A DNA stretch of 64,000 nt from Phycisphaerales bacterium (GTDB lineage Bacteria > Planctomycetota > Phycisphaerae > Phycisphaerales > SM1A02): positions 1,335-65,334 of the forward strand of contig JAKVBV010000011.1 in the NCBI GenBank assembly GCA_022446965.1, written 5' to 3'. Positions 10,741-64,000 of the stretch are shown here, in pieces (position 1 is the stretch's first letter; every line of letters begins with the position of its first letter). Under the pieces are notes generated by a model. The model saw nothing but the letters and a program-made list of their open reading frames with translations, was not told where the DNA came from and did no database searches. Position numbers and translations under genes: made by a program.

Positions 10741-10773
10741 GGCGGCATTCTACCGCCGTGGCGGATTCAGCCC

Positions 10774-13543: not shown

Positions 13544-13556
13544 GACTGGGTTAACT

Positions 13557-13589
13557 GGTGCGTTGCACAGTTAGGTCTCAGTGCACACC
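13557..13589 (+). terminator. possible hairpin downstream of the yihY-like gene
   Basis: GGTG(cgt)TGCAC, 12-nt loop, GTGCA CACC, followed by GCTTTGG. The T-tract is weak, so this is only a candidate. Confidence 0.3.
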
Positions 13590-13671
13590 GCTTTGGTAGG
13601 GATGACGAGCCATGTGAAGTTCTGGAGCTTCTAACGGATTGTGTCCTCGTGAGCACTGATTTACACGACAC

Positions 13672-14256: not shown

Positions 14257-14460
14257 AATTTTGCTTGATCTGGCAAGGCTGAAACGCCCCGCGGGCAGTT
14301 TTTGCAGTGGTAAGAAATCTAAATTTGGTAGCAGGGCAGGTGATCTTAATGGCAGTAAGATGCCAATAGTACTTTCTAATGACCTGCTGTCAAGTTTGAG
14401 GGGACACTCTCAAAGCCTGAATATGAGTAAGGACGACCACGGGGGGTACACTGTCAGTTA

Positions 14461-15030: not shown

Positions 15031-15066
15031 GCGCCGCGATCCCACTGCAATTGAACTGCGATGACG

Positions 15067-16710: not shown

Positions 16711-16726
16711 GCGTGTGTGGTGGCAC

Positions 16727-42793: not shown

Positions 42794-44256
42794 TGGAACA
42801 GCGGCTGACACATACGACGTCACAGCAGACGCAGCAGAACCTGCGTACCTCACCGCGCATGATTCAATCGATGGAGATTCTGCAGATGCCGCTTCCGGCC
42901 TTGCAGGAGCGCATTGATCAGGAACTCGAGAGCAACATCGCGTTGGAGATCGACGAGGGTGCCGAGTCAGCCGAGACGGCCGCCGATGAGCAGCATGCTG
43001 ACGCCCCCGGGGAGAATGCCGAAGAGTTCGCTCGTCTCGACTCGATGGAGCGTGATTTCGGTGAGGACTACGACAACACCTACGGATCGCGTGGACTGCG
43101 ACGAGAGCGATCTGGAGACGGCGACTGGCGACAGGACTTCATGGCGAATCTCCGGGCGCGGGGCGACTCGCTCCAGGATGAAGTACTGCACCAGTGGACG
43201 TTCGCGGAGGTCGAGTCAGACATCGCCAAGGCCGGGCAGGTCTTGATCGAGTCGCTGTCCCCCGACGGTCTTCTTGAAGTGCCGCTCGAGGAACTCGCTG
43301 ACACGAGCGTGTCGCACGATGCGCTCGAGCAGGCGCTGGCCACGCTGCAAACGCTGGTGGAGCCATCGGGCATCGGTGCCCGCAGCTTGCAGGAGTGTCT
43401 GCTGCTGCAGGTGCGAGCCCAGATCGAGCAGGCGCCCGAAGATGCCGCGGCGTGGGGCGCGGTGCAGGCACTCATCGAGGATCACCTCGACGATCTCGTA
43501 CAGAACCGCCTTCCGGACATCGTCAAGGCCACGCCCTATGACATGGCGCAGGTTCGTGATGCCATGCGGTTGATGCATCGGTTGAGCCTGGCGCCTGGCA
43601 AGGACCTCACGCCAGATGACGTACTCCCGGTGATTCCCGACGTGCTCGTGGAGTACGACGACGTCTCGGACACCTACGTTGCCACGTTGCTCGACGGCCC
43701 GATTCCGCCGCTGCGAGTGTCGCCTCGCTATGTGGAGATGGCCCGAGACAAGGCGGTGGACACCCGTACTCGTCAGTTTCTTGAACGCAATGTCGACAAC
43801 GCGCGTTGGCTGGTGGATGCGCTGCAACAGCGGGGGGCCACGTTGCTCAAGGTGGTCGATGTGGTGCTCGACAAACAACGTCCGTTCTTTGATGAAGGGC
43901 CACGCAGTTTGAAGCCCCTGCCCATGACCGCAGTGGCGGACATCATCGGTGTGCACGTGGCGACGATCAGTCGTACGGTGGCCGACAAGTGGATGCAGAC
44001 ACCACGCGGCATCTTGCCGTTGCGTAGGTTCTTCTCCGGCGGTACGGCGACATCATCGGGTGAGCAGATGTCCTGGGATGCCGTCCGTGAGGTGCTGCGT
44101 GAGGTTGTCGAGCAGGAGGACTGCCGCAAACCTCACAGCGACGAGGCGCTCGCCGCTGCATTGCGTGAGCGCGGCATCGACATCGCCCGCAGGACGGTGG
44201 TCAAGTATCGACAGAAGATGGGCATTCCGCCGGCACGATTGCGGCGGGAGCATTAG
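42790..44256 (+). CDS. rpoN: RNA polymerase sigma-54 factor
   Basis: 'LRTSPRMIQSMEILQMPLPALQERIDQELESN' (region I), 'DIIGVHVATISRTVADKWMQTPRG' (HTH) and 'RRFFSGG' (RpoN box). The ATG overlaps the recR stop. Confidence 0.9.
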   Translation: MMEQRLTHTTSQQTQQNLRTSPRMIQSMEILQMPLPALQERIDQELESNIALEIDEGAESAETAADEQHADAPGENAEEFARLDSMERDFGEDYDNTYGSRGLRRERSGDGDWRQDFMANLRARGDSLQDEVLHQWTFAEVESDIAKAGQVLIESLSPDGLLEVPLEELADTSVSHDALEQALATLQTLVEPSGIGARSLQECLLLQVRAQIEQAPEDAAAWGAVQALIEDHLDDLVQNRLPDIVKATPYDMAQVRDAMRLMHRLSLAPGKDLTPDDVLPVIPDVLVEYDDVSDTYVATLLDGPIPPLRVSPRYVEMARDKAVDTRTRQFLERNVDNARWLVDALQQRGATLLKVVDVVLDKQRPFFDEGPRSLKPLPMTAVADIIGVHVATISRTVADKWMQTPRGILPLRRFFSGGTATSSGEQMSWDAVREVLREVVEQEDCRKPHSDEALAAALRERGIDIARRTVVKYRQKMGIPPARLRREH

Positions 44257-48367: not shown

Positions 48368-48765
48368 GGTTTGCTGCGCATCGTCGTCGACAATATCGCG
48401 CTCGCGCCGTGGTGCGGCTCGCAGGACTGATCGACCTCGTGTTCCTGCTGCTGACGTTCTTTCTCGCCACAACGGCCCTGCTGGATCCGGAGTTTCGCGT
48501 GGGCACGATGCTGCAAGGCAGGGGAAGCAGCCAGAACGCGGTGCATGTGCCACCTGTCGTCGTGCACGTGCATGCCGAGGGATGGTCGGTCGGGCCACGG
48601 GCATGTTCCACGGTGTCCCAATTGCGGCACGTGCTTGAAGGGCTGCCTTCCGAGCCGGGTGTGGACATTGCAGTATCGGCCGATGCGCCAGCAGGCCATG
48701 TGGTGGTCGCAGTCCGTGAGGCCCGTCAGGCTGGCATGCAGGCCTTGCGGTTGCAAACACCATGA
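48364..48765 (+). CDS. exbD: ExbD/TolR family biopolymer transport protein (paralogue 2)
   Basis: 'RLAGLIDLVFLLLTFFLA' with the conserved TM Asp. ATGA overlap with the preceding gene. Confidence 0.8.
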   Translation: MRFAAHRRRQYRARAVVRLAGLIDLVFLLLTFFLATTALLDPEFRVGTMLQGRGSSQNAVHVPPVVVHVHAEGWSVGPRACSTVSQLRHVLEGLPSEPGVDIAVSADAPAGHVVVAVREARQAGMQALRLQTP

Positions 48766-50906
48766 CGGTTGCCGCCCTGTGTGCAGTTGCGGTGTTGTCC
48801 TTGGCAGATGGGTGGACAGAGACTGCCGCGTGGCTGCAGCGCACGGGGCAGCGTGATCTCGCACTCGAGGCGGCGGTCCTTCAGGCCCATGCGGGAGATG
48901 GTGGACGCGTTGCGCAAGGCGCACTGCTCGAAGCCATCATCGCCGTACTCGACGACCCCATGACTGATGCCCAGACACGCACTCGAGCCATCGCGGAACT
49001 CAAACGGGCACGGCCTGACTTCAGCGGCATGCTTGCGGTCGAGGCAGGCCTGGCATTGATCACGGCCGAGCGTCAGGACGCACTGTCGGCCGAACAGCGC
49101 GATGTGCTGTTGGCTGGCGTACTTCGTGATGCTGCGGCCGTGCGACGATCGGTACAGGTGCAGTTGGACGAGAGCACGCGGCACGCGCAGCGGCGTCGAT
49201 TGCAGGCGCTCCTGCGTCGGGCCGCCTTGCTCGAAGGCACGGTGCGTGTCGATCTGGGTGGGCATGATTCGGGCACGCGGTCGCTGCTGCTCACCGCATT
49301 GACCGGTGATGCCCGGGCGGATGACACGCTCGTCGCCGCCATGCCCGAGGGCATGTACGAAACACCCGATGCCGCGTGGGCCTGTGCCGCATTGGCGCGG
49401 CTGGCCCTGTCGCACGGTGACGTGCCAGCGGCAACCAGATGGCTGGGCCACCTCATCGCGGTGCAGTCTCCGGTGCTCGATGCGCCGATCGACAATGTGC
49501 TCGTGGCCGTGTTATCTGCAATGGGCCAGGAGACGGCCACGGTGTTTGTCGAAGATCACATGCCGATGTTCAGCACGGAGGCCATGATCGAAGTGGTCCG
49601 ATGGGTGCCCATGCTCGATGGCACGATGGCAGGTCGACTAAGTGACGATCAGGTTCGCGCGGCGCTCGCCAATTCGCCACGGGCCTTGCCCGATTGGGAC
49701 ACGCCAGGTGTGGCGTTGGCGGCCCATGACCGGGCTGTTGCTGGTGCACGGCCATGGCACATGGCGCACCATCGGCTCGAGCAGCTGTGGGCGAAGGGTG
49801 ATCGTTCCGCGGTCATCGGCCACGCCTTGGCCATGAGCCATGCCCAGCAGGTTGACTTGACTTCAGCATGGGCCGTCCTTGGTCAGGTGCCCGAGGCCAA
49901 ACGCACTCGCATGACGGACGAGATGGTGGTTTCGGTCTACAGCCGCATGACACCAGAGCAACGGGCGGCTGCGAGCGGCGCTCGCCTGATGCTGCAGGCC
50001 GCGATGGCATCACCTGATCTGCAGGTACGCAAGCACGCTGCATTGGCGATCGCAGCTATGGATGACACACCACCGCAGGACGTGATCGCCTTGGTGCATG
50101 GTGATGACAGCCCAGCAGCCCGTGCAGTGCGTGATGCAGCCCTGTGGCGAGGCTGGCGTGCCGGGGAGGTTGCCGCTGCACAGGCGGTGCAGGCGGCCGC
50201 GGACATGTTGCCCGATCCGGGTGCTGCCCGCCGTGTGCTGGAGGCGTTGCCTCATGCCGAACTGCCTGTGGGTCTCGCTGATGTCCTGGCCACGCGGGCG
50301 ATTGCGTCCCTTGAGTCCGGGCAGCTGGTCGCTCAGATCCGATGGGCACTGCAGATCGATGACACGGCGCGGGCCCTGGCCGTCTTCAACACCCGCGAAG
50401 ACCACGTCTCACCGGAGGATGTTCGTATTGCAGCGGGCGTGCTGCTGGAGCATCCTGTGCCGCTGGGCGACCACGTGTCCGATGCGGCGGCCGTGTTGCT
50501 TGGGATGGCGCCCGCTGCGGTGCAGGAGAGTGCGCAGCTGACCACTGTTCACCGCACGGTGTTGCAGCATTGGGCTCGGCACGTGCTTGGTGGGGCACAC
50601 GTGCCACTGGACACCTTGCGCACCCTCGCTGCGATCGACGTGCTCGATCAGGACGGGTGCATGGCGCTGGCCACCGTGGCCCAATCCAAGGGCGACTGGC
50701 ATTTGGCGCATGATCGCTGGCGGCGAGCGGTGCGCTTTGGTGGCCCTCGGGTGGCCTGGCTGCAGCTACAGGAACTCAAGGCGCTGGTGCATGTCGACGT
50801 TGATGCGGCCAGAGTGATTGCAGCACAACTAGCCGTGTTGTTGGAAGGCACGGCAGAAGGTGACGAGATCGCCGCCCTACGGGATCAGCTGGAGCCCGCG
50901 CCATGA
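48762..50906 (+). CDS. hypothetical 714-aa Ala/Leu-rich helical protein with N-terminal hydrophobic segment
   Basis: ATGA overlap at both ends. 'MTVAALCAVAVLSLADGW' is a signal or anchor. The long helical-repeat-like sequence has no recognisable motif. Antisense ORFs here are all short. Confidence 0.6.
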   Translation: MTVAALCAVAVLSLADGWTETAAWLQRTGQRDLALEAAVLQAHAGDGGRVAQGALLEAIIAVLDDPMTDAQTRTRAIAELKRARPDFSGMLAVEAGLALITAERQDALSAEQRDVLLAGVLRDAAAVRRSVQVQLDESTRHAQRRRLQALLRRAALLEGTVRVDLGGHDSGTRSLLLTALTGDARADDTLVAAMPEGMYETPDAAWACAALARLALSHGDVPAATRWLGHLIAVQSPVLDAPIDNVLVAVLSAMGQETATVFVEDHMPMFSTEAMIEVVRWVPMLDGTMAGRLSDDQVRAALANSPRALPDWDTPGVALAAHDRAVAGARPWHMAHHRLEQLWAKGDRSAVIGHALAMSHAQQVDLTSAWAVLGQVPEAKRTRMTDEMVVSVYSRMTPEQRAAASGARLMLQAAMASPDLQVRKHAALAIAAMDDTPPQDVIALVHGDDSPAARAVRDAALWRGWRAGEVAAAQAVQAAADMLPDPGAARRVLEALPHAELPVGLADVLATRAIASLESGQLVAQIRWALQIDDTARALAVFNTREDHVSPEDVRIAAGVLLEHPVPLGDHVSDAAAVLLGMAPAAVQESAQLTTVHRTVLQHWARHVLGGAHVPLDTLRTLAAIDVLDQDGCMALATVAQSKGDWHLAHDRWRRAVRFGGPRVAWLQLQELKALVHVDVDAARVIAAQLAVLLEGTAEGDEIAALRDQLEPAP

Positions 50907-51547
50907 AGTCGCGTCGTCGGCGAGTGATGTTGGCCGCGCAGCGTCGTGGACGTCGGCCTGGTCGCACAGTACTGTCGGTGTCAGCGCCGCAAGTGCAACG
51001 GCCCGATCGCCGATGGGGTGGCGTGGTGTTGTGGAGCGCGGTGGGGGTGTTGATCGTGGCGGCGGCCATCGTGGGCGGCGCGTTGCCTGAGTCCCAGCCG
51101 CCACTACCAGCGAAGGCTGAAGCACCTGCACACGAATTGGATGGCGCTGCACACCCTGAAGCGCAATCGCCGAGCGTCCATGCCCCAAGCACGGAGCCCT
51201 CGGATGGGCCCGTACTGTCTCTTCAGTCGCCTGCGGTTCGCCCTCAGCACGATGTGCAGCGGCTGGTCACGCTCGCAGCATCAGTGGATCTCGACGAGGC
51301 GGCACTGCAGCGCCATGTTGGTGTGATCGACGATGTGTGGGCCGTGTTGTCAGCGCAAGAGCGCGTGGCCGCAGCGACTGCGATTGAACAAGCGTTGCGT
51401 TTGCGGCGTGATCGTGTCGTCTGGTCCGGTGCGTTGATCAACGCGATGTCCGCGCCGATGCGCATCGCGGTCAGCACCCGATTTCAGGAAGCATGGCCCC
51501 GGCAGGGATGGCCACCGGTGTTCGGCGACGTGGCGATCAGCCCATGA
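50903..51547 (+). CDS. hypothetical bitopic protein (Arg-rich N-terminus, one TM, Pro-rich spacer, C-terminal globular part)
   Basis: 'RRRRVMLAAQRRGRRPGR', TM 'WGGVVLWSAVGVLIVAAAIVGGA' and 'PESQPPLPAKAEAPA...'. ATGA overlap with the upstream gene. Confidence 0.55.
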   Translation: MKSRRRRVMLAAQRRGRRPGRTVLSVSAPQVQRPDRRWGGVVLWSAVGVLIVAAAIVGGALPESQPPLPAKAEAPAHELDGAAHPEAQSPSVHAPSTEPSDGPVLSLQSPAVRPQHDVQRLVTLAASVDLDEAALQRHVGVIDDVWAVLSAQERVAAATAIEQALRLRRDRVVWSGALINAMSAPMRIAVSTRFQEAWPRQGWPPVFGDVAISP

Positions 51548-52107: not shown

Positions 52108-52680
52108 ATGATGCCCATGGATCAGGACACGCAAACCACACCTCAAGGCGATGGCCAGTGCGATCTCACCACCGCCCGCATTCTGGTGGTCGATGACAAC
52201 GCACAGAATCTCGAGCTGATGCAGGCCTACCTCGAAGGCCTCGGATGCTCGATCGAGACCGCTCCCGACGGCGTTTCCGCCATGGAAGCGATTGCGGCCC
52301 AGTCGCCTGATCTGGTGCTGCTTGACGTCATGATGCCGCGGATGTCTGGTTTTGAGGTGTGCCGCAAGATCAAGGCCGATCCAGCCACTCGAGACGTGGT
52401 GGTGATCATGGTCACCGCGCTCAACGAGGTTGCCGACTTTGAGCGAGCTGTGGAGTGCGGCACCAACGACTTCATCGCCAAGCCGGTGAACAAGCACGAG
52501 TTGCTCACACGGGTGCGGTCCTTGCTGCAGTTGCGACTGCTCAAGCAGCAGTTCGATCAGCTCGGTGGTGCCCCAGGCAGTGGGGCGATGCGGCCCAATG
52601 CGGCCGATGTCGAAGGCCTGCAGGATCACGGCGACGTGATCGAGCCACCGCCACCGGTGGATGCCCCGCAGGACGATTGA
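52108..52680 (+). CDS. stand-alone response regulator (CheY-like receiver)
   Basis: 'RILVVDDNAQNLELM', 'DLVLLDVMMPRMSGFEVCRKIK', 'VIMVTAL' and 'DFIAKPV'. Confidence 0.85.
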   Translation: MMPMDQDTQTTPQGDGQCDLTTARILVVDDNAQNLELMQAYLEGLGCSIETAPDGVSAMEAIAAQSPDLVLLDVMMPRMSGFEVCRKIKADPATRDVVVIMVTALNEVADFERAVECGTNDFIAKPVNKHELLTRVRSLLQLRLLKQQFDQLGGAPGSGAMRPNAADVEGLQDHGDVIEPPPPVDAPQDD

Positions 52681-53194: not shown

Positions 53195-54814
53195 TCAGGG
53201 AATGTCGACCCGGAGCACCTGATTGGCCCTGATGGGCCCTGGCACCTGCACTGGCAGATACGGCGGCATGGTCACGGTGATCGAGTTCACCTGGTCAAAG
53301 TCGCCCAGCCCCACATGCACCAAGTGATCGCTGGCGGTCATGTACGAGGACGCCGTCTGAACCGGAACGGTGATCATGCGATCGACCAGACGCACCTGTA
53401 CCACGGCACCAAGCGCCGGGGCGAAGGATGATCGACGCACGTCCACGCCCAGCCAGTTCGAATCCGGAGTGATGTTGCGGTACACCCGGGCAGGTGCGTC
53501 GCGATTCACCACGACCACGTCAATCTTGCCGTCGCGATCGATGTCACCAAAGATCGCGCCACGTGAGGTGAGGGGCTCATGGTGCTCGACACCTGCGCGC
53601 ACCGCAGTGGGCTCAAAGCGGCCCGTAGCGGTGCCGGCCAGCAGTAGATTGCGCTGCGCGTACGGGTCGCCTGACTCGGGCAGGTGTTGGGGACGTAGTA
53701 CGGCACCATTGGCTTCGTACAGATCGATATGGCCGTCGTTGTTGAAGTCGACGAATCCCAGGCCGAAGCGGGTGTTCGCGCGGGTGTTGGCTCGCAGGCC
53801 CGCACGAGTGGTGATGTCCACGAAGTACTGGCCGTCATTGCGAAACAGTGAATCGGACTCGTTGCGCAGATTGCACACGATCAGATCGAAGTCGCCGTCG
53901 TCGTCGATGTCGGCGATGTCGACACCCATGCCGGCCTTGGGCTTGCCTTCGTCATCAATGGCCACGCCAACTTGCATGCCGATTTCGGTGAAGGTGCCAT
54001 CGCCGTTGTTGGTCCAGAGATGATCCGGCATCAGATCGTTGGCCACGAAGATGTCCATCGTGCCGTTCTGATCAAAGTCGGTCGCCACAATGCCAAGCCC
54101 CGTGCCGGGCTTGGTGGAGATGCCGGCCGATTCGGTGACATCGGTGAACGTGCCCTTGCCGTCATTGATGTACAGCCGGTCGACGGTGGGCGCCATGAAG
54201 TTGTTGGGTGAGCAATACTCGGGCGACCCGATGGCGTCGACGCAGTCGAGGGCCGTGTCAGGCGTCCAGGCGAGGTAGTTCACCACGAACAGATCCAGAT
54301 CGCCGTCGGTGTCGGCGTCGAAGAAGGCAGCCGATGCGCCCCAGCCGTCATCCTCCACACCGGCGTTCGGGGCTTCTTCAAACGTGCCATCGCCGGTGTT
54401 CAGCAGCAGCACATTGGGGCCCAGATTGGTGACGAACAGGTCAATGTCGCCGTCGCCATCCACGTCGCCGGTGGCCACTCCCATGCCGTAGCCCTCGTAT
54501 TCGGTGCCGTTGGTCCACGGCGTGAACGTGCCATCGCCATCGTTTCGCCACATGGCGTTGGGGCCCTTGCCCTGCACGAAGTACAGGTCTAGATCGCCAT
54601 CGACATCGGCGTCCAACAGGGCGCCGCCGCCGCCGATGATCTCGGGCATGTGAAACGCACCTTCAGCCCCGGAGTGCCATGTGAAGTCGACACCAGCGGC
54701 ATCCGTGTGATCCGCGAACCACGGGTGTTGCGGAGGGGCGGACTGCGGGGACTCGGGTGCGTTGTCGCTACAGCCACCGAGGAGCGCCAGCGCCAGGAGG
54801 CTTCGTCTGGTCAC
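53195..54814 (-). CDS. CRTAC1-family lipoprotein (FG-GAP/VCBS repeats + ASPIC/UnbV C-terminal domain)
   Basis: Lipobox 'LALALLGGCSD'. Repeats 'DADVDGDLDLYFV', 'DVDGDGDIDLFV' and 'DIDDDGDFDLIV'. UnbV-like 'VDVRRSSFAPALGAVVQVRLVDRMITVPVQTASSYMTASD..VHVGLG'. GTG overlaps the upstream stop. Confidence 0.85.
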   Translation of the reverse strand: MTRRSLLALALLGGCSDNAPESPQSAPPQHPWFADHTDAAGVDFTWHSGAEGAFHMPEIIGGGGALLDADVDGDLDLYFVQGKGPNAMWRNDGDGTFTPWTNGTEYEGYGMGVATGDVDGDGDIDLFVTNLGPNVLLLNTGDGTFEEAPNAGVEDDGWGASAAFFDADTDGDLDLFVVNYLAWTPDTALDCVDAIGSPEYCSPNNFMAPTVDRLYINDGKGTFTDVTESAGISTKPGTGLGIVATDFDQNGTMDIFVANDLMPDHLWTNNGDGTFTEIGMQVGVAIDDEGKPKAGMGVDIADIDDDGDFDLIVCNLRNESDSLFRNDGQYFVDITTRAGLRANTRANTRFGLGFVDFNNDGHIDLYEANGAVLRPQHLPESGDPYAQRNLLLAGTATGRFEPTAVRAGVEHHEPLTSRGAIFGDIDRDGKIDVVVVNRDAPARVYRNITPDSNWLGVDVRRSSFAPALGAVVQVRLVDRMITVPVQTASSYMTASDHLVHVGLGDFDQVNSITVTMPPYLPVQVPGPIRANQVLRVDIP

Positions 54815-56232
54815 GGTTGCTGACCGCTTTCTTCGGAGAGCGCCGCATTGCGAACAGCTCGAGCCAGACCCGAGAGTTGTGGATGTTGTGGGCTGTGCTG
54901 CAGGCCGGCCATGGCGGCTTCGAAGGCCAATTGCAATTCACCCTTGCGGCGATGTGCTTCACCCAGAATCAACCAGGCACGTGGCGTGGCCGGATGTGAT
55001 TGAGCAACCATGTGTGATTGGGTGATGGCGTTGTCGTATCGCTCCACTTCGATCAGCACGGCTGCGTATTGCAAGCGCTCAAGTGGATCGGTCACGCCCA
55101 GGGCGAAGGCGGTGTCCATCGCGGCAATTGCATCGGTGGGGCGTTTGGCGACCAGATGAATGCGGGCCACCTGCAGGTGGCCATCGGGGACGTCCGGCTG
55201 TGCGTCGGCCGCGGCCATGGCAGCCGTGAGCGCGGGGCCGAGTTGATCATTGGCCCGTAGTGCCATGGAGAGATTTAACTGCGTCATGTAGTCGTCGCGT
55301 GCCACACGGACAGCTTGTCGGGCGACACGAAGCCACGCTGCGGAGTCGTTCCGGCGGCGATGCACATCGCCGAGGCGAGCAAGCAGGCCGATGTCATCGG
55401 GCCATACCTTGAGCGCAGATTGCGCCGTGCGCTGCGCCTTGAGCAGGTCGTTGTCGGCGATGGCGCGATCGATGCGGTCATACTCCGCGTCAAGCCCGTG
55501 CTTGGCATCCAGCAGGGCTGTCGCCCGATCATCGGGGAAGCGTGGCGCTTGAGGATCACCATCACGCAAGAACGGCGCAGCAGCGTCGGCTTGGCCACTG
55601 CGTTGCAAGGCCTGGCCGAGCAGGTAGCGCACGTGCGGGTGGCTAGTGGCTTGCAGCAGCGACTGCAGGGCGGTGGCCGCCTGCTGATGCTCGCCACGTT
55701 CCATCTGGACCCTGGCTTGGCCAAGGCGAGCTGCCGCTGCAGACGGGTCGTGCTTCAGCGCCTCGGTGAATGCGGTCATGGCGTCGTCGGATCGACCCAG
55801 ATCGAGCAGCCACTGGCCGTGTCGCCAATGGGCCGGGGCGTGCGTCGGGTCCAGCGTGATCGATTGGGTCATGGCATCGACGGCGGCCTGTACATCGCCA
55901 CGCTCAGATGCCGCCATGGCGGTGTAGTAGGTCGGTCGCGGGTCGATTGGTGCCATCTGTGACACCTGTGCCCAGGCCGTCGATGCATCGGCGGCCAGGC
56001 CGTTGGCCTGCAGCACCAGAGCGTAGGCAATCCTAGCTTCGGCACTGTCCCCAGCGTCGACAGCCGTTTGATGCGCCTGTTCGATCGCGGATCGCACCAC
56101 CGGATCAGCCGCCTCGATGGTGCTTGATGGGGCGGCTGGAGGCGGGGCGGGCGCATCGCAGCCGGCGAGCATGAGTGTCGCCGTGAGGGCCAGTCCAGCA
56201 GTCGTGAATGAGAAGAGTCGCTCGATCGCCAT
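54811..56232 (-). CDS. TPR-repeat lipoprotein
   Basis: Lipobox 'LTATLMLAGCDAP'. Multiple 34-aa TPR-like units ('AEARIAYALVLQANGLAADA...', 'AWLILGEAHRRKGELQLAFEA'). Confidence 0.8.
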   Translation of the reverse strand: MAIERLFSFTTAGLALTATLMLAGCDAPAPPPAAPSSTIEAADPVVRSAIEQAHQTAVDAGDSAEARIAYALVLQANGLAADASTAWAQVSQMAPIDPRPTYYTAMAASERGDVQAAVDAMTQSITLDPTHAPAHWRHGQWLLDLGRSDDAMTAFTEALKHDPSAAAARLGQARVQMERGEHQQAATALQSLLQATSHPHVRYLLGQALQRSGQADAAAPFLRDGDPQAPRFPDDRATALLDAKHGLDAEYDRIDRAIADNDLLKAQRTAQSALKVWPDDIGLLARLGDVHRRRNDSAAWLRVARQAVRVARDDYMTQLNLSMALRANDQLGPALTAAMAAADAQPDVPDGHLQVARIHLVAKRPTDAIAAMDTAFALGVTDPLERLQYAAVLIEVERYDNAITQSHMVAQSHPATPRAWLILGEAHRRKGELQLAFEAAMAGLQHSPQHPQLSGLARAVRNAALSEESGQQP

Positions 56233-56273
56233 GGCCCCGATGATAGACGCTGACGGTGCTCTAGAATCCCGGC

Positions 56274-57278
56274 ATGGCTCGTGCCCCGCAGACCATCGCG
56301 CCGTATCACGCCGCTGCCATTCAAACCGCGATGCCCTCGCCGTCGCATCGCGATGCCATCCCTGAGCGAATCGAGCACATGCTGACGCTCGCCGGGCAGA
56401 CCATTACCGGATATGAGCCGTTCTTCGACGTGCGGTTGCTCGTGTTTCCTGAATTCGCCCACACGGTGCCGATCCACACCACGCTTGAGCCCATCGTGCG
56501 TGACCTGGCCGTTGAGCTGGATGACACCATGCTTGACCCCTACGCCAGGTTCTGCGCCCAGCACGGGTGCTGGATTCAAACGGGCAGTTTTCTCGAGGTG
56601 GATCCGGCGGTCGGCCGTGACGTCGTCTTCAACACCACGGTGCTCATGGGGCCCGACGGAATCGAGTTCACCTATCGCAAGCTCAATCCATGGATCCCGT
56701 GGGAGATCCATGCTTCGCCCCATGATGTCGATCCTGCCGGTGACCATCTGCCTGTCGCCCACACCGAGATCGGGTCCATTGGTGTGGCCATCTGCTACGA
56801 CTGGCTCTTCCCGGAGGTCCTGCGTGAACTGCGGCACAAGGGTGCCGAAGTGTTGTGCAGGGTGAGCGCCTACATGGATCCGTGGGGGGCCACCCCGCCG
56901 ATGGACTGGTGGACCCTGTTCAACAGGGCCAGGGCCGCCGAGAACACCTGCTTCGTGGTGGCCGCCAACCAAGGGGCACACATGGACCAGTACCCGCCGT
57001 TCTCCTGGCCTGGTGGATCCATGGTGGTCGACTTTGACGGGCGCGTATTGGCCCAGGCAGATCCAGGCCCGGGAGAGAAGGTGGTGGTGGCACCCATTGA
57101 TGTGATGGCATTGCGTGCGGCGCGCGACCGGCGACGTGGCCATGACATGGCGGCGCATCACCGAGGCACCGCCTACCCGTATGCACGCCAAGCAGGCTTT
57201 CCCCCGGCCACCGATCATCCCATCAGTGTCGAGTCACTTGACGCCCGCATCGCCCAGGCCAAGGAGCGGCCATCGTGA
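56274..57278 (+). CDS. carbon-nitrogen hydrolase (nitrilase superfamily; amidase/formamidase-like)
   Basis: Putative Glu-Lys-Cys triad contexts: 'LLVFPEF', 'FTYRKLNPW' and 'IGVAICYDWLFPE'. Confidence 0.85.
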   Translation: MARAPQTIAPYHAAAIQTAMPSPSHRDAIPERIEHMLTLAGQTITGYEPFFDVRLLVFPEFAHTVPIHTTLEPIVRDLAVELDDTMLDPYARFCAQHGCWIQTGSFLEVDPAVGRDVVFNTTVLMGPDGIEFTYRKLNPWIPWEIHASPHDVDPAGDHLPVAHTEIGSIGVAICYDWLFPEVLRELRHKGAEVLCRVSAYMDPWGATPPMDWWTLFNRARAAENTCFVVAANQGAHMDQYPPFSWPGGSMVVDFDGRVLAQADPGPGEKVVVAPIDVMALRAARDRRRGHDMAAHHRGTAYPYARQAGFPPATDHPISVESLDARIAQAKERPS

Positions 57279-57289
57279 ACCATCGTGAA
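57270..57289 (+). repeat. perfect 10-bp tandem duplication CCATCGTGAA x2 spanning the stop/start junction
   Basis: Read directly: ...ggC CATCGTGAAC CATCGTGAAt... The first copy holds the GTGA stop/start overlap of the two genes. Confidence 0.9.
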
Positions 57290-60200
57290 TTGCTGTGTGT
57301 CGGACTTGTGCTCTCCACCTCGCTGGTGAGTGGATGCAGCGATCCGCCGCCACCACCAGATCCACCCCAGCCAGCACCCACCGCCGAGGTTGATGTGGCA
57401 GTGCACAACGCCGCAGTGGCGGCCATGGGGCGGTACGACTACGCCGAAGCCTTCGAGTTGCTTGTCGAACTGGATCAACGGTATCCCCGGTGGCCAGATG
57501 GGCAGGTCGATCTGGCCATCGCTCAATTGAACAGGCAACGTGAAGGGGATGAAGCCGCTGCGTTGATCCGTGCCCAAGCGGTGCAGGCCATTGCGTCGGA
57601 CAATCTCAGAGCGTGGTACGTGTCCGGGTTGCTCCGCATGAACGCTGGAGATGCGCAAGGGGCATTGGCCGACTTCATGCGGGTGGCCGAGGCCGACTCG
57701 ACTGATGCCTACGCCGCGTACTACAACGGACAAGCATTGAGCCAACTCGGTCAACCAGACCAGGCCTTGCCGTGGTTCGAGCGTGCCATCGACATCAATC
57801 CGTATCTGCGGTCCAGCTACTACGCCGCCTCACAAGCAGCCCGTCGCTGTGGCGACAGCGCTGCGGCCGATGCCCACCTCGCCGCGTTTCAACGCATGGA
57901 ACACAACCCTCGCGCGCAATTGGCAGAGCTCAAGTACACCCGCATGGGCCCCAAGGCGAACGTGTCGTCCATCGCAGGTCCGCAGCATGTGGGCGTCGTG
58001 CCTGACGGGCCGTTGTTCAATACGGTGGAGGTCATTGCAGGCATCCAGAGTGCCGGCCAGTGGGCTTCATTGGCCGCTACCCGCGTCCTGGATCGGCCTG
58101 TGGTCCTGGCCTGTGGTGACAGCGGCCTCGTGCTTCTGCATCGCACAGGTGACCAGTGGGCGACCACCCCTTGGCCTGAACAGGTGGACGATGTCCGCGG
58201 TGCGATGTTCGGTGATGTGAATGATGACGGCCATGTCGATGCCGTACTGCTGCGTGATGGCCCGGATCAACTGTGGCTCGGTGGAGAAGGCCTTCGATTC
58301 ACCTGTGATGAACGATTCGTGAATGTTCTGCAAGACGCCACGGCAGATGGTGCCCTCTTCGATGCGGATCATGATGGTGACCTCGATGTACTCACCCTGA
58401 CCGATGACGGTGTGCTGCACCTGCTGAACAACAACGGCAATGGCACATGGCGTGACATCTCGTCTGAGGCGTGGGGCAATCAGCAGCGGTCCAGCGGTGG
58501 GCGGCAGGTGGTGATTGCGGATCTCGATGCCGATCTCGACAGCGACGTGATCGTGGTTCGTGACGACGGCTGCGAGGTGTGGGTGAACGATCGCCTGTGG
58601 GCATGGCGGGCGTCGCCGGATGTATACGACGCATTCGCATGCACCGTGCCTGAGGCGCTGATCGCCTCGGACATCGATGCCGATGGTGTCGTGGATCTCG
58701 TGGCGTGCAGCTCGGATGGGGTGCAGGCATGGTCGCGCACCATGGTTGGATTCACAGCGAGGCCGTGCTTTGGTGATGCGGCCTGCAGCGGGACCGCCAT
58801 GGCGATCGTCGACATGGATGGCGATGGCGCTGTGGACCTCGTGCACGCTGGCGATGGTCGCCGCATTGGAGTGACACGCCATGACGGCACCACCGTGGGC
58901 GATACCAACATGCCGCCGATCTGGACCGTGGTCAACACGGTGCAGGGCGAAGGCGTATCGCTGATCGGAATCGATGAGGCAGGCGATGTACACATGGCCG
59001 CGCCGGGCGCTGGTCGGTTCACGTTCGTGGATGTGCAGCTGGCCGGTCGAATTGACGAAGGACAGTCGATGCGATCCAATGCCAGTGGGATCGGCGCGAC
59101 GATCGCAGCGCGGAGCGGCTTGCGTTGGACGATGGCCGGAGGCGTACGTGCCACCGCCGGGCCAGGGCAGAATCTGCAACCTCTGGCCATCGGTCTGGGC
59201 GGTGCACCTGCGCTGGATTTCGTGTCCATCGACTGGACAGACGGCGTGTTCCAGACCGAGGCGATGGTGGCGCCCGGGCAGATGCACACGATCGTTGAGA
59301 CGCAGCGTCAGCTCAGTTCATGTCCTGTGATCTTTGGTTTCAACGGCACGGAAATGGCGTTCATCACCGATTGCCTGGGTGTTGGTGGCATCGGCTTCTT
59401 CTTGGCGCCCGACACCTTCGCCCCGTCTCGTGGGCATGAACGGGTGTTGTTACCCGATGGGGCGCTGCAGCCACGCCATGGCCGGATCGATGTGGTCATC
59501 GCCGAGCCCATGCAGGAGACGTGCTACCTCGACGATGTGTCGCTGTTGGCGGTCGACGTCCCTGACGGGTGGGAGGTGCTGCCGGATGAACGGATGGGCA
59601 CCGGCGGCGACGAGCCGACAGGGGAACTGCTCTTCAGCCGACACTCAATGCAGCCGACGGTGGTTCGCACCGACGATGATCGCGATGTGACCGCTGCAGT
59701 GCTGGAGGTTGATGGTGTGCCTGCCGATCCAGGTCCACTGCATCGTCGGTTCATCGGTCGGACGGTCGATCCGCTCGTGTTCACCGCTTGGTTCGATGCG
59801 GCTCTGGATTCGCATGTCGGCACACCACTGATGGTGATCGATGGGTGGGTGGAGTACCCCTACGGCCAGACCATGTTCGCTGCGTGGCAGGCCAAAGTCG
59901 CCTACGACCCGATCAGCGTGGAGGTGCAACTGCCCGGAGGGCTGTGGGTTCAAGTCGCGGATCGTGTGGGCTACCCCGCAGGCATGCCGCGCACCATGGT
60001 GCTGCCACTGCATGATCTGCCCAAGGGGGCTCACAATCTGCGCGTGCGAACCACATTGGCCATGTCGGTGGACGCCATTCGGATCGCTTGGTCTGAACCA
60101 TGTGCAGCGGCGCATGTGACGACGTGCGTTCCAGCCTTTGCCGAGCTCTTTGATGCGGGATTCCCACGGGCGTGGCACGACACGCATGGGCGTCCGCAGT

Positions 60201-60532
60201 TCGATTGGCATGATCGATCGCCGTGGTGGGATACCCGCACACAGCGTGGTCTGTATTCAGCCATGGGCGACGTGCGGCAATTGGTGCGCGACCGCGACGG
60301 CGTGCAGGCCGTTTTCGGTGCCGGTGATGCTGTTGCACTGCAGTTCGACTCGCCGCCAGATGCAAGCACGGGGTTCACCCGTCAATGGGTGCTCGATGTG
60401 GGCGGGTGGGCCAAGGACATGGATCTCATGACACGCACCGGAGCAACAGTGGCTCCACTGCCTGGGCGACGCGATGCCCACGGGCAGGCGCTGCAGGAGG
60501 CCACGCAGACCCGCTGGCGTGATGGCCGCTGA
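57275..60532 (+). CDS. TPR + FG-GAP/VCBS + ASPIC/UnbV lipoprotein with about 400-aa C-terminal extension
   Basis: Lipobox 'LSTSLVSGCSD'. N-terminal TPR units. Repeats 'GDVNDDGHVDAVLL', 'DADHDGDLDVLTL' and 'DMDGDGAVDLVHA'. UnbV-like 'SNASGIGATIAARSGLRW...LAIGLGGAPALDFVSIDWTDG'. GTG start. Confidence 0.85.
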   Translation: MNHRELLCVGLVLSTSLVSGCSDPPPPPDPPQPAPTAEVDVAVHNAAVAAMGRYDYAEAFELLVELDQRYPRWPDGQVDLAIAQLNRQREGDEAAALIRAQAVQAIASDNLRAWYVSGLLRMNAGDAQGALADFMRVAEADSTDAYAAYYNGQALSQLGQPDQALPWFERAIDINPYLRSSYYAASQAARRCGDSAAADAHLAAFQRMEHNPRAQLAELKYTRMGPKANVSSIAGPQHVGVVPDGPLFNTVEVIAGIQSAGQWASLAATRVLDRPVVLACGDSGLVLLHRTGDQWATTPWPEQVDDVRGAMFGDVNDDGHVDAVLLRDGPDQLWLGGEGLRFTCDERFVNVLQDATADGALFDADHDGDLDVLTLTDDGVLHLLNNNGNGTWRDISSEAWGNQQRSSGGRQVVIADLDADLDSDVIVVRDDGCEVWVNDRLWAWRASPDVYDAFACTVPEALIASDIDADGVVDLVACSSDGVQAWSRTMVGFTARPCFGDAACSGTAMAIVDMDGDGAVDLVHAGDGRRIGVTRHDGTTVGDTNMPPIWTVVNTVQGEGVSLIGIDEAGDVHMAAPGAGRFTFVDVQLAGRIDEGQSMRSNASGIGATIAARSGLRWTMAGGVRATAGPGQNLQPLAIGLGGAPALDFVSIDWTDGVFQTEAMVAPGQMHTIVETQRQLSSCPVIFGFNGTEMAFITDCLGVGGIGFFLAPDTFAPSRGHERVLLPDGALQPRHGRIDVVIAEPMQETCYLDDVSLLAVDVPDGWEVLPDERMGTGGDEPTGELLFSRHSMQPTVVRTDDDRDVTAAVLEVDGVPADPGPLHRRFIGRTVDPLVFTAWFDAALDSHVGTPLMVIDGWVEYPYGQTMFAAWQAKVAYDPISVEVQLPGGLWVQVADRVGYPAGMPRTMVLPLHDLPKGAHNLRVRTTLAMSVDAIRIAWSEPCAAAHVTTCVPAFAELFDAGFPRAWHDTHGRPQFDWHDRSPWWDTRTQRGLYSAMGDVRQLVRDRDGVQAVFGAGDAVALQFDSPPDASTGFTRQWVLDVGGWAKDMDLMTRTGATVAPLPGRRDAHGQALQEATQTRWRDGR

Positions 60533-60554
60533 TCGGGTTTCTGGTGTGAAAATC

Positions 60555-60571
60555 GACGGTCCTCGACCGTC
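60555..60571 (+). terminator. short perfect hairpin between the 1085-aa gene and the cytochrome gene
   Basis: GACGGTC-ctc-GACCGTC (7-bp stem), 22 nt after the stop and 47 nt before ATG 60619. No T-tract, so it could be an attenuator or processing site rather than a terminator. Confidence 0.3.
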
Positions 60572-60618
60572 ATTTGACCGAAGACTGTTGTTTGAGGCGA
60601 TCATCTGCCTTGGACAAC

Positions 60619-63420
60619 ATGCCCAACGATCACGCAGCATCTGAGACTCCTCTTCACGCCCGGCCTCGCCGTCGACGGCCTGATCCGGTGCTCCCCCCGT
60701 GGTTGGCACGTGTGCTGGCCGTGGTGCTGGCACTCTTCGCTCTGCTGGTGGTGAACTCCATCTATCTGGTGGGTGTTCGCGTGCTGGGATTGGCCACCGG
60801 CGAAACGCATGAGAACTGGTTCTATCTGGTGATGTTTATGGCCCACCTCGTGCTGGGCCTGTTCTTGTTGGTCCCCTTCGTGTGCTTCGGGATCGGGCAC
60901 ATGAAGCGAGGGCGCCGCCATCCCAACAAGCGGGCGGCGAAGGTCGGCTATGGCCTGCTCATCACCTCAATCATCGTGTTGCTCACGGGCATCGTGCTGA
61001 TGCGCATTGACGGTGTCATCGTGATCAAGGATCCCGTCATTCGCGACATCTTTTGGTGGCTGCATGTCGTGGCCCCGCTGGTGGCGGTGTGGTTGTATCT
61101 CTTGCACCGTCTCGTGGGCGTGCCAATGCGCTGGCGCGTTGGTGCGGCTTGGGCGGGCCTGGGCACGGTGCTCGCCGTGGTCATGGTGCTGCTGCAGTCG
61201 CAAGATCCAAGGGCCTGGAACACCGTGGGCAATCCCGACGGGGACGAGTACTTCTTTCCCTCTTTGGCTCGGACCGTCACCGGAGACTTCATCCCCGCTG
61301 ATGTGCTGCAGAACGATGAGTACTGCCTGCAATGTCATGCGGACATCCACGACAGTTGGATGCACTCGGTTCACAAGTTCAGTTCGTTCAACAATCCGGC
61401 ATATCTCTTCTCCGTCACGGAAACGCGCGAGAACGCGATGGAGGAAGACGGCAACGTGAATGCCAGTCGCTTCTGTGCCGGCTGCCACGATCCCGTGCCG
61501 TTCTTCAGCGGTGCATTCAACGATCCGAACTACGACATGGTGGACGATCCCACGGCCCACGCGGGCATCACGTGCACCGTGTGTCACAGCATCACCCATA
61601 TCAACTCACCGAGGGGCAATGCTGATTACACGATCGACGAACCGCCGCACTATCCCTTCGCGTTCAGCGATGAGCCGGTGTTGCAGTGGATCAACCAGCA
61701 GCTGGTGAAGGCCAAGCCGGAGTTTCACCGCAAAACATTCATGAAGCCACTGCATCGCACGGAGATGTTCTGCGGGACATGCCACAAGGTGCACCTGCCC
61801 GAAGAACTCAACAAGTACAAGTGGTTGCGCGGGCAGGACCATCAAGACGCATTTCGCTTGTCAGGCGTGTCGGGGCACGGCATCACGAGTTTCTACTACC
61901 CGCCCGTGGCGCATGTGAACTGCAACGATTGCCACATGCCGCTGATGGCGTCTGACGACTTCGGTGCTGCGGTGCGTGATGACAGTGGCGAACTCAAGGT
62001 GCACGATCACATGTTCCCCTCGGCGAACACGGCGATCCCCACCATGGTGACGATGCCGCGCAGTGAGGAGGCCATCGCCAAGCACCGCGACTTCCTCGAG
62101 GGTGTGATGCGGCTGGACCTCTTCGCCATTCATGAAGACGGCGAATTGGCCGGCGAACTGCATGCACCGCTCGACGAGACACTGCCCGTGCTTGAGCCCG
62201 GTGGGGCGTACGTGCTTGATGCCGTCATTCGCACGGTGAAGATGGGGCACATCTTCACTCAAGGCACGGCTGACTCCAATCAAGTGTGGATGGATGTCAC
62301 GATTCGGTGTGGTGACCGGATCATCGGCCGCAGTGGCGACATGACGGCTGACGGGCAGGTCGACCCATGGAGCCACTTCGTCAACGCATTCGTCATCGAC
62401 CGTGACGGCAACCGGATCAACCGTCGCAATGCGCAGGACATATTCACGTCGCTCTACAACCACCAGATTCCGCCAGGGGCAGCGGATGTGATCCACTATG
62501 GATTCGAAGTGCCGGCCGACTGCGACGAACCCATCACGATCGAGGCTGCACTGAAGTACCGCAAGTTCGACACCGAGTACATGCGGCTCGTGCACGATGA
62601 TCCAGACTGGAACAACGATCTCCCTATCACCGTCCTGGCGACCGACACGATCACATTGCCCGTGGCCGGTGGAGAGACGATCACGCCTGATCGCGGTTCG
62701 CCCGTGCCGGCGTGGCAACGATGGAACGACTACGGCATCGGGTTGTTCCGCAAAGGGGGCCAGGGGGAGCTTCGTGCTGCCGAGCATGCGTTCGGCCAGG
62801 TGGAAGCGTTGGGTCGATCGGAAGGACCGATCAATCTCGCCCGGGTATATCTCAAGGATGGCCAGGTCACAGAAGCAGCGCCGGCCGCCCTGGCTCGCGG
62901 CGCGGAGATGGATCATGCCGCCCGTGAGTGGCACCTGTTGTGGTTCGGTGGTCAGGTGGACCGCCAGAATGGCCGGCTCGATGCGGCCATCGACAAGTAC
63001 CGCCAGATTCTCGAAGGTGGCTTCGCTCAAGCGCAAGGTCGTGGCTTCGACTTCACGGAAGACTGGCGGGTACTCAACGAGTTCGCGTCGACCTTGTATC
63101 AACGTGCCCGTCGCGCACGTGGTTCCGATGCCGAGGCGCAGCGTACGGCGCTGCTGCACGAGGCCCGCGACATCTATGCCCAATCGCTGACGCTCGATCC
63201 GGAGAGTGCTGCCGCCCATCACGGGCTGTCTCTGGTGTATCGCGATCTCGGCGATACGGCCTTGGCGCAGCAGCATCAGCAGCTGCACGCTCGGTACAAG
63301 ATTGACGACAATGCCCGCGATCACGCGGTGTCTGAAGCACGCCGCAAGTATCCCGCAGCCAACGAGGCCGCCGAGCCGGTGATGATCTACGACCTGCAGC
63401 GAGAGCCCAAGGCCCTGTGA
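60619..63420 (+). CDS. membrane-anchored multiheme (5 x CxxCH) cytochrome c with C-terminal TPR domain
   Basis: About 5 N-terminal TM helices with paired His ('AHLVLG...GIGH', 'WLHVV...LLHRL'). Heme motifs 'CLQCH', 'CAGCH', 'CTVCH', 'CGTCH' and 'CNDCH'. C-terminal TPR ('AAHHGLSLVYRDLGDTALAQQHQ'). ATG 60619; the track start at 60574 is TTG. Confidence 0.85.
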   Translation: MPNDHAASETPLHARPRRRRPDPVLPPWLARVLAVVLALFALLVVNSIYLVGVRVLGLATGETHENWFYLVMFMAHLVLGLFLLVPFVCFGIGHMKRGRRHPNKRAAKVGYGLLITSIIVLLTGIVLMRIDGVIVIKDPVIRDIFWWLHVVAPLVAVWLYLLHRLVGVPMRWRVGAAWAGLGTVLAVVMVLLQSQDPRAWNTVGNPDGDEYFFPSLARTVTGDFIPADVLQNDEYCLQCHADIHDSWMHSVHKFSSFNNPAYLFSVTETRENAMEEDGNVNASRFCAGCHDPVPFFSGAFNDPNYDMVDDPTAHAGITCTVCHSITHINSPRGNADYTIDEPPHYPFAFSDEPVLQWINQQLVKAKPEFHRKTFMKPLHRTEMFCGTCHKVHLPEELNKYKWLRGQDHQDAFRLSGVSGHGITSFYYPPVAHVNCNDCHMPLMASDDFGAAVRDDSGELKVHDHMFPSANTAIPTMVTMPRSEEAIAKHRDFLEGVMRLDLFAIHEDGELAGELHAPLDETLPVLEPGGAYVLDAVIRTVKMGHIFTQGTADSNQVWMDVTIRCGDRIIGRSGDMTADGQVDPWSHFVNAFVIDRDGNRINRRNAQDIFTSLYNHQIPPGAADVIHYGFEVPADCDEPITIEAALKYRKFDTEYMRLVHDDPDWNNDLPITVLATDTITLPVAGGETITPDRGSPVPAWQRWNDYGIGLFRKGGQGELRAAEHAFGQVEALGRSEGPINLARVYLKDGQVTEAAPAALARGAEMDHAAREWHLLWFGGQVDRQNGRLDAAIDKYRQILEGGFAQAQGRGFDFTEDWRVLNEFASTLYQRARRARGSDAEAQRTALLHEARDIYAQSLTLDPESAAAHHGLSLVYRDLGDTALAQQHQQLHARYKIDDNARDHAVSEARRKYPAANEAAEPVMIYDLQREPKAL

Positions 63421-64000
63421 CCGACCCCAGCAACCAACGAGACCGGTATGTCCCTGAGGGCGGTGATGATCAAGTCATCGCCGTGGCCCTTCGTCGATCC
63501 TTGATCGGGCTGTTGGTGGCGGTCTGTGTGGTGGGTGTGGGCGTCGCTGTGGTGGTGCTCAGCGGCGAGGCGGAGCCCGAGCCGGTGGTGAAGGACACCA
63601 CGGCCCCCGTGGCCCTCGTGGCCGACGAGGCGATCTTGCCCGAGGTTCGATTCACAGACATCACCCGAGAGGCCGGCATCGACTTCGTGCATGTGAATGG
63701 TGCCCAGGGCGAGCGGCTCCTGCCCGAAACGATGGGGTCTGGTGCGGCATTCTTCGATGTCGACAATGACGGTGATCAAGATCTCTTGTGTGTCAATGGC
63801 ATGTGGTGGCCGCACAGTGATCGAGCCAACGAGCTGGCACCCGCCGGTGTGCTGTATCTCAACGATGGGGCGGGGTACTTCGTGGACAGCGGCTGGGGCT
63901 TGGGGCCACCGCTGCAGGGCACCGGCGTCGCCTGCGGTGATGTTGACGGCGATGGGCTGATCGATGTGTACATCGCGGCAGTCGGATCCAATCGGCTGCT
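63417..64000 (+). CDS. CRTAC1-like FG-GAP protein, N-terminal part (runs off window end)
   Basis: Own translation from GTG 63417 (GTGA overlap with the cytochrome stop). TM 'LIGLLVAVCVVGVGVAVVVL', 'FTDITREAGIDFVHVNG...GSGAAFFDVDNDGDQDLLCVNG' and 'GVACGDVDGDGLIDVYIA'. Not in the ORF track because no stop lies within the window. Confidence 0.7.
   Translation, partial: MTDPSNQRDRYVPEGGDDQVIAVALRRSLIGLLVAVCVVGVGVAVVVLSGEAEPEPVVKDTTAPVALVADEAILPEVRFTDITREAGIDFVHVNGAQGERLLPETMGSGAAFFDVDNDGDQDLLCVNGMWWPHSDRANELAPAGVLYLNDGAGYFVDSGWGLGPPLQGTGVACGDVDGDGLIDVYIAAVGSNRL

Follow-up and report, generated by a model that had tools for sequence, protein, structure and literature searches.

A membrane pentaheme cytochrome gene paired with a CRTAC1-like propeller gene in a Phycisphaerales locus and in several bacterial phyla

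Inner-membrane cytochromes of the CbcL type in Geobacter fuse a b-type membrane domain to a periplasmic multiheme c domain, and the NapC/NirT proteins (CymA, NrfH and the pentaheme TorC) are membrane-bound tetra- or pentaheme cytochromes that link the quinone pool by electron transfer to a periplasmic partner of their own, which TorC docks via an extra domain. In the CRTAC1/ASPIC family, represented by the murine structure 9etn, an FG-GAP propeller with Dx[DN]xDG loops is followed by an UnbV domain; bacterial members are numerous, especially in Planctomycetota and Verrucomicrobiota, and full-text searches found no paper giving bacterial UnbV proteins a function. Here we describe a six-gene locus of a Phycisphaerales bacterium (genes A to F) in which a multiheme membrane cytochrome, E, is encoded directly upstream of a CRTAC1 relative, F. 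The locus lies at the end of a 64,000-nucleotide stretch of contig JAKVBV010000011.1 (positions 1,335 to 65,334, forward strand; assembly GCA_022446965.1), which we refer to as the window. C, D, E and F are on its plus strand, and B and A diverge from them on the minus strand.

E (60619-63420, plus strand) encodes a membrane pentaheme cytochrome-TPR protein of 933 residues when read from its ATG, and F (63417-64000 and beyond, plus strand) a CRTAC1 homologue with a transmembrane anchor, whose N-terminal 194 residues lie inside the window, the rest being cut off by the window end. The surroundings of E were compared in a sample for which one genome per species was scanned; at least 584 species carried an E relative, and 80 loci were kept with flanks of 10 kb. 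These loci belong to Planctomycetota (Phycisphaerae, Pirellulales, Planctomycetales and Isosphaeraceae), Verrucomicrobiota, Acidobacteriota, Pseudomonadota (several orders) and Methylomirabilota, and the carriers include cultured Rhodopirellula and Stieleria strains, among them Rhodopirellula europaea 6C, R. maiorica SM1 and Stieleria magnilauensis TBK1r. In 74 loci the DNA continued for 1.5 kb or more downstream, and these we took as informative; 70 of them had an F-type orthologue after E on the same strand and within 3 kb, and the gap between the two genes was 150 bp or less in 62 of 72. Where complete, the gene after E scored 343-776 bits against F and 174-290 bits against A, the CRTAC1-like protein of the minus-strand unit; F forms an orthologous group of its own. 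When all open reading frames within 10 kb of E were clustered, those that recurred were E itself (79 loci), F (71), D-like genes (22) and C (6), any other recurrence being an antisense shadow.

Sampling from the other genes gave a graded picture. A sample centred on D returned C-D-E-F in three of three look-ups, two of which also had the divergent B-A pair, and the full layout of A-B diverging from C-D-E-F was present in loci L082 and L083, although their D shares only 41-46% identity with D of the window. In a sample of 80 metagenome loci centred on C, D directly followed C in 40 of 58 cases, E followed C-D in 18 of 21, and F followed E in 12 of 14; the divergent B-A pair was found upstream in 3 of 36, and is lineage-restricted. 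The 4-bp overlaps at the C/D and E/F junctions reappear in distant lineages. The cluster is real, non-random and conserved over several phyla. The gene association, which the original prediction had put forward from this genome, thus extends beyond it, since E is followed by an F-type orthologue in at least five phyla and the C-D-E-F arrangement recurs. The comparison suggests a hierarchy, with E-F as a near-obligate core, C-D as a tight pair, in many cases overlapping by 4 bp, that usually brings E-F with it, and B-A as a lineage-specific addition.

It is very likely that E and F act as one membrane/periplasmic unit. One orthologous group of CRTAC1 proteins accompanies a large family of multiheme cytochromes almost without exception, and this pairing turns the vague class of "FG-GAP repeat protein" into a defined two-gene system, the first testable functional context for bacterial CRTAC1 relatives. 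Full-text searches found no paper on a pairing of cytochrome and CRTAC1 apart from an observation on hydrazine synthase (HZS) homologues (PMC12758564), discussed later. We infer that E-F is a multiheme electron-transfer module anchored in the membrane; its membrane domain has not been described before, and its propeller partner is without precedent. If an electron path from quinone to propeller exists, it would constitute a new kind of respiratory or periplasmic redox module, and the E-F system may shed light on the role of the conserved CRTAC1 fold in animals.

The description of E as a membrane protein with five CxxCH motifs and TPRs was confirmed by motif reading, Pfam and a structural model. 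E has exactly five CxxCH motifs (61324-61338, 61474-61488, 61573-61587, 61771-61785 and 61921-61935), which together span a heme-c domain at 61324-61935 on the plus strand. Across 79 E orthologues, no variation occurs in the ten cysteines and five histidines of the heme motifs, and seven additional histidines of the heme domain are 91-100% conserved, which suffices for bis-histidine ligation of five hemes. Since there are enough conserved distal histidines for all five, electron transfer is favoured over an open catalytic heme. Pfam matched E to Cytochrome_C554 (23.3-26.3 bits, cut-off 20.8) as well as to TPR families. E thus has several CxxCH motifs in an exported, predicted periplasmic domain, as multiheme c-type cytochromes do, and the five c-hemes very probably face the periplasm.

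Downstream of the hemes, E contains a beta-sandwich (62101-62688, plus strand; residues ~495-690) and a C-terminal TPR domain (62710-63363, plus strand; residues ~698-915), the latter recognised by Pfam, a profile search and the model. The model of E as a whole was poor, with a mean predicted local distance difference test score (pLDDT) of 56, these two domains being mostly confident. A Foldseek search with it returned only TPR proteins, and a whole-E profile compared with solved structures returned TPR proteins together with marginal matches to MccSep and cytochrome c552. The beta-sandwich had no Pfam match at E<=10, and hhalign assigned it a probability below 1% of matching D or F. The E family is large: 5896 matches were found in 90% clusters, with an inter-phylum identity of about 60%, and among 50%-identity representatives 670 clusters matched at E<=1e-30 and 1759 at E<=1e-10. 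In distant members the domain order is unchanged: an unannotated N-terminal membrane region is followed by the multiheme and then the TPR domain. Further invariant residues of E lie in the motifs RWNDYGIG, RGFDF and YKxDDNAR. We consider E to represent a multiheme cytochrome family whose membrane and beta-sandwich domains are of unassigned type, and no description of it was found in the searchable literature.

The membrane domain of E (60619-61210, plus strand) consists, according to model and sequence, of a basic N-terminus and five transmembrane helices (TM1 to TM5). It contains four histidines that are invariant in all 79 orthologues, His76 (60844-60846) and His94 (60898-60900) in TM2, and His149 (61063-61065) and His163 (61105-61107) in TM4. 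His76 and His149 sit 9-10 residues from the periplasmic ends of their helices, and His94 and His163 at the cytoplasmic ends; the spacings H76-18-H94 and H149-14-H163 are retained in ten distant family members inspected (33-45% identity). The N-terminus (RPRRRR) and the TM2-3 and TM4-5 loops are basic, from which we infer that the N-terminus is cytoplasmic and the C-terminal part, including the heme domain, periplasmic; such a location agrees with what covalent heme attachment requires. Two transmembrane histidine pairs at matched depth constitute the geometry of a two-heme transmembrane cytochrome b, which suggests that the four invariant residues hold two b-type hemes. That they bind b-hemes and also connect E to the quinone pool we regard as slightly short of an even bet.

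In its overall design, E recalls CbcL, as a polytopic membrane domain with histidine pairs and a periplasmic multiheme c domain are joined in one polypeptide. It differs from CbcL in lacking a sequence match to a cytochrome b family, in having five hemes rather than nine, in its extra beta-sandwich and TPR domains, and in its partner, which is a CRTAC1 propeller instead of periplasmic or outer-membrane cytochromes. The NapC/NirT proteins have a single transmembrane anchor, whereas E has five helices, and the corresponding Pfam family, Cytochrom_NNT, matched E at only 7.3 bits (E=4.8), placing E outside that family. Among NCBIfam models, E scored 20.2 bits against NrfB (cut-off 184), 21.5 against DmsE/MtrA (cut-off 192) and 18.7 against ExtKL (cut-off 250). 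By analogy, then, E may follow the quinol-linked design logic of CbcL and TorC, without sequence kinship to either.

F, the partner of E, was examined both as the window fragment and in full length. The fragment matched FG-GAP_3 (40.8 bits). The complete protein was seen in L081, a 54-kb contig that encodes a copy of E with 98% identity and shows the whole locus, including the part beyond position 64000; there, F has 616 residues with FG-GAP and UnbV domains, the UnbV domain of the window F falling past the window end. Full-length F matched 9etn by sequence (E=3e-17), in an alignment that extends through UnbV. Its N-terminus is basic and is followed by one hydrophobic helix, and a transmembrane anchor was found in 71 of 73 orthologues, which further keep the calcium loops and a motif beside the membrane (D18, A24, S28). 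The orthologues lack any conserved cysteine and share just two conserved histidines, which makes F look like a binding subunit rather than a redox enzyme.

D (57275-60532, plus strand; 1085 residues) is a predicted lipoprotein in which TPRs (residues ~38-208) are fused to an FG-GAP propeller (~245-600), an UnbV domain (~605-675) and a beta-rich tail (685-1085). Pfam recognised the TPRs, FG-GAP_3 (60.8 bits) and, slightly below the cut-off of 23.4, UnbV_ASPIC (21.1 bits). The model of D (pLDDT 80.7; predicted template modelling score 0.71) found the CRTAC1 structure 9etn as its best Foldseek match (E=4.8e-14, target TM-score 0.64 over 546 aligned columns), followed by an integrin-like fungal lectin that binds GlcNAc, and a profile of D homologues matched 9etn at 8.6e-20. 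No metal-ligand clusters are present in the alignment of D. The D-like proteins found beside E in other orders share its architecture of TPR, FG-GAP, UnbV and tail. The tail (59327-60529 of the window, plus strand) is modelled confidently and contains the conserved motifs SSCPV, DGWVEYPYxQTxFAAWQ, GYPAGMPR and KDMD; it had no Pfam (E<=10), PDB-sequence or Foldseek match, and hhalign gave a probability below 1% for its similarity to F or to the beta-sandwich of E.

The remaining CRTAC1-like protein, A (53195-54814, minus strand; 539 residues), matched FG-GAP_3 at 151.6 bits and UnbV_ASPIC at 35.4 bits (cut-off 23.4). Its propeller, which precedes the UnbV_ASPIC domain, has seven blades, each of which carries one of the seven Dx[DN]x[DN]G calcium motifs; counts of the calcium-type Dx[DN]xDG motif, which predict binding, were seven for A and four for D, and the first 194 residues of F have two. 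In L082 and L083, orthologues of A with 47-49% identity occupy the corresponding place. A, D and F belong to the CRTAC1/ASPIC-UnbV family, all of whose examined hallmarks were found. The original prediction of three FG-GAP plus UnbV proteins was therefore right for A, and for the other two needs some detail: UnbV of D is sub-threshold by profile, though the fold matches 9etn, and UnbV of F is visible only in L081. The underlying CRTAC1-like calls proved correct on domain and structure search, through the 9etn matches of F and D.

Compared with CRTAC1 itself, F is membrane-anchored, A and D are predicted lipoproteins, D adds the N-terminal TPR domain and the 400-residue tail, and Pfam gave no EGF-like domain in A, D or F. 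Further, F is the obligate neighbour of a multiheme cytochrome, for which animals have no counterpart. The lipoprotein status of A, B and D, claimed earlier, is plausible from their lipoboxes (LLGGC, LAGC and VSGC, respectively), on the reading of which the call depends; the pattern L-x-L-L-x-G-C is conserved in the alignment of D. B (54811-56232, minus strand; 473 residues), the predicted TPR lipoprotein encoded next to A, matched TPR families throughout in Pfam, and its orthologues were found in L001, L082, L083, L090 and L091. The pairing of TPR with propeller thus occurs three times at this locus, as B with A, as E with F, and as a fusion within D. By the "Rosetta-stone" argument, the fusion in D implies at the level of domains that TPR and propeller may interact. 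The TPRs of B and D share generic TPR similarity only, so the argument holds for the domain type and not for orthology.

C (56274-57278, plus strand; 334 residues) is a predicted cytoplasmic C-N hydrolase without a signal peptide, which matched CN_hydrolase at 131.9 bits. Its catalytic triad of Glu (FPEF), Lys (YRKLNPW) and Cys (AICYDW) aligns with that of AmiF, and the closest solved structures are the AmiF formamidases 5g3o (E=3e-24) and 2dyu. It scored 108.3 bits against the formamidase equivalog NF009803, far below the cut-off of 406, and is thus not an AmiF equivalog. C had been described as a nitrilase-superfamily enzyme; the superfamily stands, and within it the sequence points to the amidase (AmiF/AmiE-like), or formamidase/aliphatic-amidase, branch and not to the nitrilases. 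With AmiF and AmiE it has in common the fold, the Glu-Lys-Cys triad and the YRKLNPW motif. It differs from them in forming a separate, tightly conserved subfamily, 62-67% identical across phyla, and in being translationally coupled to the gene of a periplasmic lipoprotein.

A copy of C with 66% identity is also found in L086 (positions 1-10984; contig_7840 of ERZ25039500), where it is divergent to a different cluster of heme-protein and CRTAC1 genes, encoding a RidA-like protein, an HZS_alpha homologue, a CRTAC1-like protein (541 residues), a fusion of c554 and beta-propeller (795 residues) and two Peripla_BP_6 proteins. This is a non-anammox HZS-homologue cluster, whose embedded "CRTAC1 family" gene was remarked on by the authors who described such clusters (PMC12758564). 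CRTAC1-like genes of the L086 type also flank C in L121, L125 and L162. The amidase subfamily of C, CRTAC1-like propellers and c-type heme proteins are consequently combined in at least two architectures. In the HZS-homologue clusters, the CRTAC1-family gene likewise stands amid c-type heme and propeller proteins, the heme proteins being HZS_alpha and the c554-propeller fusion, without TPR or polytopic membrane domain. Kinship of the E heme domain with the c554-propeller protein of L086 was considered and rejected, as the two share a generic triheme pattern only.

The company kept by C is a hint of nitrogen-compound chemistry. Loci in which C occurs without D have unrelated neighbours, which gave no additional functional clue. 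In L083, a gene for an ArgR-family repressor (13390-13842, plus strand) is located between D and E, a loose pointer to nitrogen- or arginine-related regulation. In an acidobacterial locus, L085, C-D is followed by a gene for a 608-residue protein without Pfam match (14302-16128, plus strand), in place of E-F.

Taken together, we propose an envelope system in which E is the electron-transfer subunit between quinone pool and periplasm, and its TPR domain docks calcium-binding, non-redox propellers; we assign this reading a probability of roughly 50%. E would reside in the inner membrane, which it would cross five times, with five c-hemes, the beta-sandwich and the TPR domain in the periplasm. 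The two putative b-hemes and the five c-hemes would then form a seven-heme wire leading from the quinone pool to the periplasm. F would be produced together with E and probably held beside the hemes by the TPR domain of E and by its own transmembrane helix, and, with its calcium-binding propeller and UnbV domain, would act as the ligand-binding subunit. That F, and perhaps D and A too, dock on the TPR domain of E we regard as an even bet. C-D would be an accessory module, in which the amidase is translationally coupled to a TPR-propeller fusion lipoprotein, and B-A a third pair in this lineage. The recurring amidase suggests that a substrate or product may be a small amide-type nitrogen compound, which would be finished off in the cytoplasm; that the substrate of the system is a small nitrogenous compound tied to the amidase is, on balance, unlikely.

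Several observations weigh against this proposal. The membrane domain of E had neither a Pfam (E<=10) nor a PDB match beyond chance level, its profile returning chance-level matches only among solved structures; DUF2231 appeared in 5 and DUF4405 in 2 of 16 E-family members, all sub-threshold. The b-hemes are accordingly hypothetical, because no known b-type family matches by sequence, and the four membrane histidines might instead serve to bind a quinone or some other metal. In the E model, the heme region cannot be relied on (pLDDT <50), so that heme packing and ligation cannot be read from it. F, D and A show no catalytic signature that would point to the species oxidised or reduced. Finally, most E-F loci are without C and D, and about one quarter of C genes stand alone amid unrelated neighbours, making the link to nitrogen weak.

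Two other accounts of the locus shift the role of the hemes. E may itself be catalytic, as a membrane-tethered multiheme reductase or oxidase of small nitrogen, sulfur or oxygen species comparable to NrfA, octaheme reductases or HAO-type proteins, with F, D and A serving in accessory, assembly or channelling roles. Its heme domain is extremely conserved over phyla, beyond what is typical of a simple electron wire; the first three hemes follow a c554-type pattern common to NrfA-like enzymes; cytochrome c552 and MccSep matched weakly; and elsewhere the amidase subfamily and a CRTAC1-like gene accompany HZS-like heme proteins (PMC12758564). However, every heme motif is CxxCH and five or more further conserved histidines could serve as distal ligands, implying no obviously open heme site, the scores against NrfB, DmsE and ExtKL are far under their cut-offs, and the model gives no usable structure of the heme domain. 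We regard a catalytic E as unlikely, and about as unlikely a second account, in which the locus encodes a non-redox envelope scaffold or an adhesion or assembly system and the hemes of E are structural or sensing. TPRs and FG-GAP/VCBS propellers are classic interaction modules, the next structural match of the D propeller after CRTAC1 is a GlcNAc-binding lectin, F, D and A are without redox residues, and no other redox enzyme recurs within 10 kb of E in the 80 loci. Against such a scaffold, five invariant heme sites and four invariant membrane histidines are costly features to have been kept over 670 clusters (50% identity), and E lacks the cytoplasmic output domain that a sensor would need. 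An extension of the electron-transfer reading, in which E-F is a new membrane oxidoreductase whose CRTAC1 propeller binds the substrate and is possibly catalytic, is less probable than either: five c- and two b-hemes would link a small nitrogenous substrate to the quinone pool, the amidase would cleave an amide product in the cytoplasm, and the HZS-like clusters, having recruited a CRTAC1 gene and this amidase subfamily independently, would be signs that Planctomycetota and other phyla possess a broader, so far undescribed form of periplasmic nitrogen redox chemistry.

The cluster had also been proposed to be an envelope or extracellular redox-linked system. E shares with CbcL the architectural logic of a histidine-rich membrane domain and a periplasmic multiheme domain, and so might be an inner-membrane entry point to extracellular electron transfer or to iron or manganese redox chemistry, like CbcL, ImcH or CymA of Geobacter and Shewanella. 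In the 80 loci, the 10-kb surroundings of E contain no recurring gene for a porin, an outer-membrane cytochrome or a periplasmic shuttle cytochrome, and because of this an extracellular electron-transfer conduit was set aside; the host range moreover includes cultured Rhodopirellula and Stieleria, which are aerobic heterotrophs. We consider this role improbable: the extracellular route has no support from the gene neighbourhoods, and the redox link that is left would follow from the architecture of E. Least credible of all is that the genes have independent functions and have merely stayed side by side through common descent. Close relatives alone, it is true, share the B-A pair and the upstream response regulator, but E-F adjacency extends over at least five phyla in which E is 50-60% identical and all other neighbours differ, and the short C/D and E/F overlaps recur in distant lineages. 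We thus retain, at the odds given above, E as a quinone-linked electron-transfer subunit with a propeller partner.

The arrangement originally described, six genes in two divergent units with three GTGA overlaps and a 41-bp gap, was confirmed in the sequence. The start/stop overlaps are at 54811-54814 (B/A), 57275-57278 (C/D) and 63417-63420 (E/F), and the gap between the divergent B and C extends from 56233 to 56273. A single sigma-70-like match in this gap (56240-56267) was not above chance, and in a scan for promoters and terminators the counts did not exceed shuffled expectation. For E, the ATG at 60619 (933 residues) is a more likely start than an alternative TTG at 60574, because orthologues support that length. 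A protein from a marine Phycisphaerales metagenome-assembled genome matches 97% of the length of E at 100% identity. In L081, the plus-strand unit terminates with F, and a convergent gene comes next: it encodes a secreted, cysteine-rich protein of 764 residues (14631-16925, minus strand) with repeated C-x-x-x-C-rich segments and no Pfam match. Its position corresponds to that just past the window end.

Just beyond the 3' end of A lies a gene for a stand-alone response-regulator receiver of 190 residues (52108-52680, plus strand), which has the same position in L081 and L082 and may regulate the cluster or reflect mere Phycisphaerales synteny. Next to it, two genes without Pfam match (48762-51547, plus strand; 714 and 214 residues) are joined by an ATGA overlap at 50903, and genes of equal or similar size are found upstream in the same order in L081 (714 and 214 residues) and L082 (681 and 208 residues). 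The rest of the window is housekeeping plus one extra FG-GAP protein. A sigma-54 gene is located at 42574-44256, and an ATP:guanido phosphotransferase gene (McsB/arginine-kinase-like; 20491-21531, minus strand) stands among housekeeping genes. The extra FG-GAP protein, the fourth in the window, has 749 residues and FG-GAP_3/FG-GAP matches without an UnbV match (30595-32844, minus strand); its gene is 20 kb from the cluster, and a trypsin-like peptidase gene on the opposite strand overlaps its 5' end.

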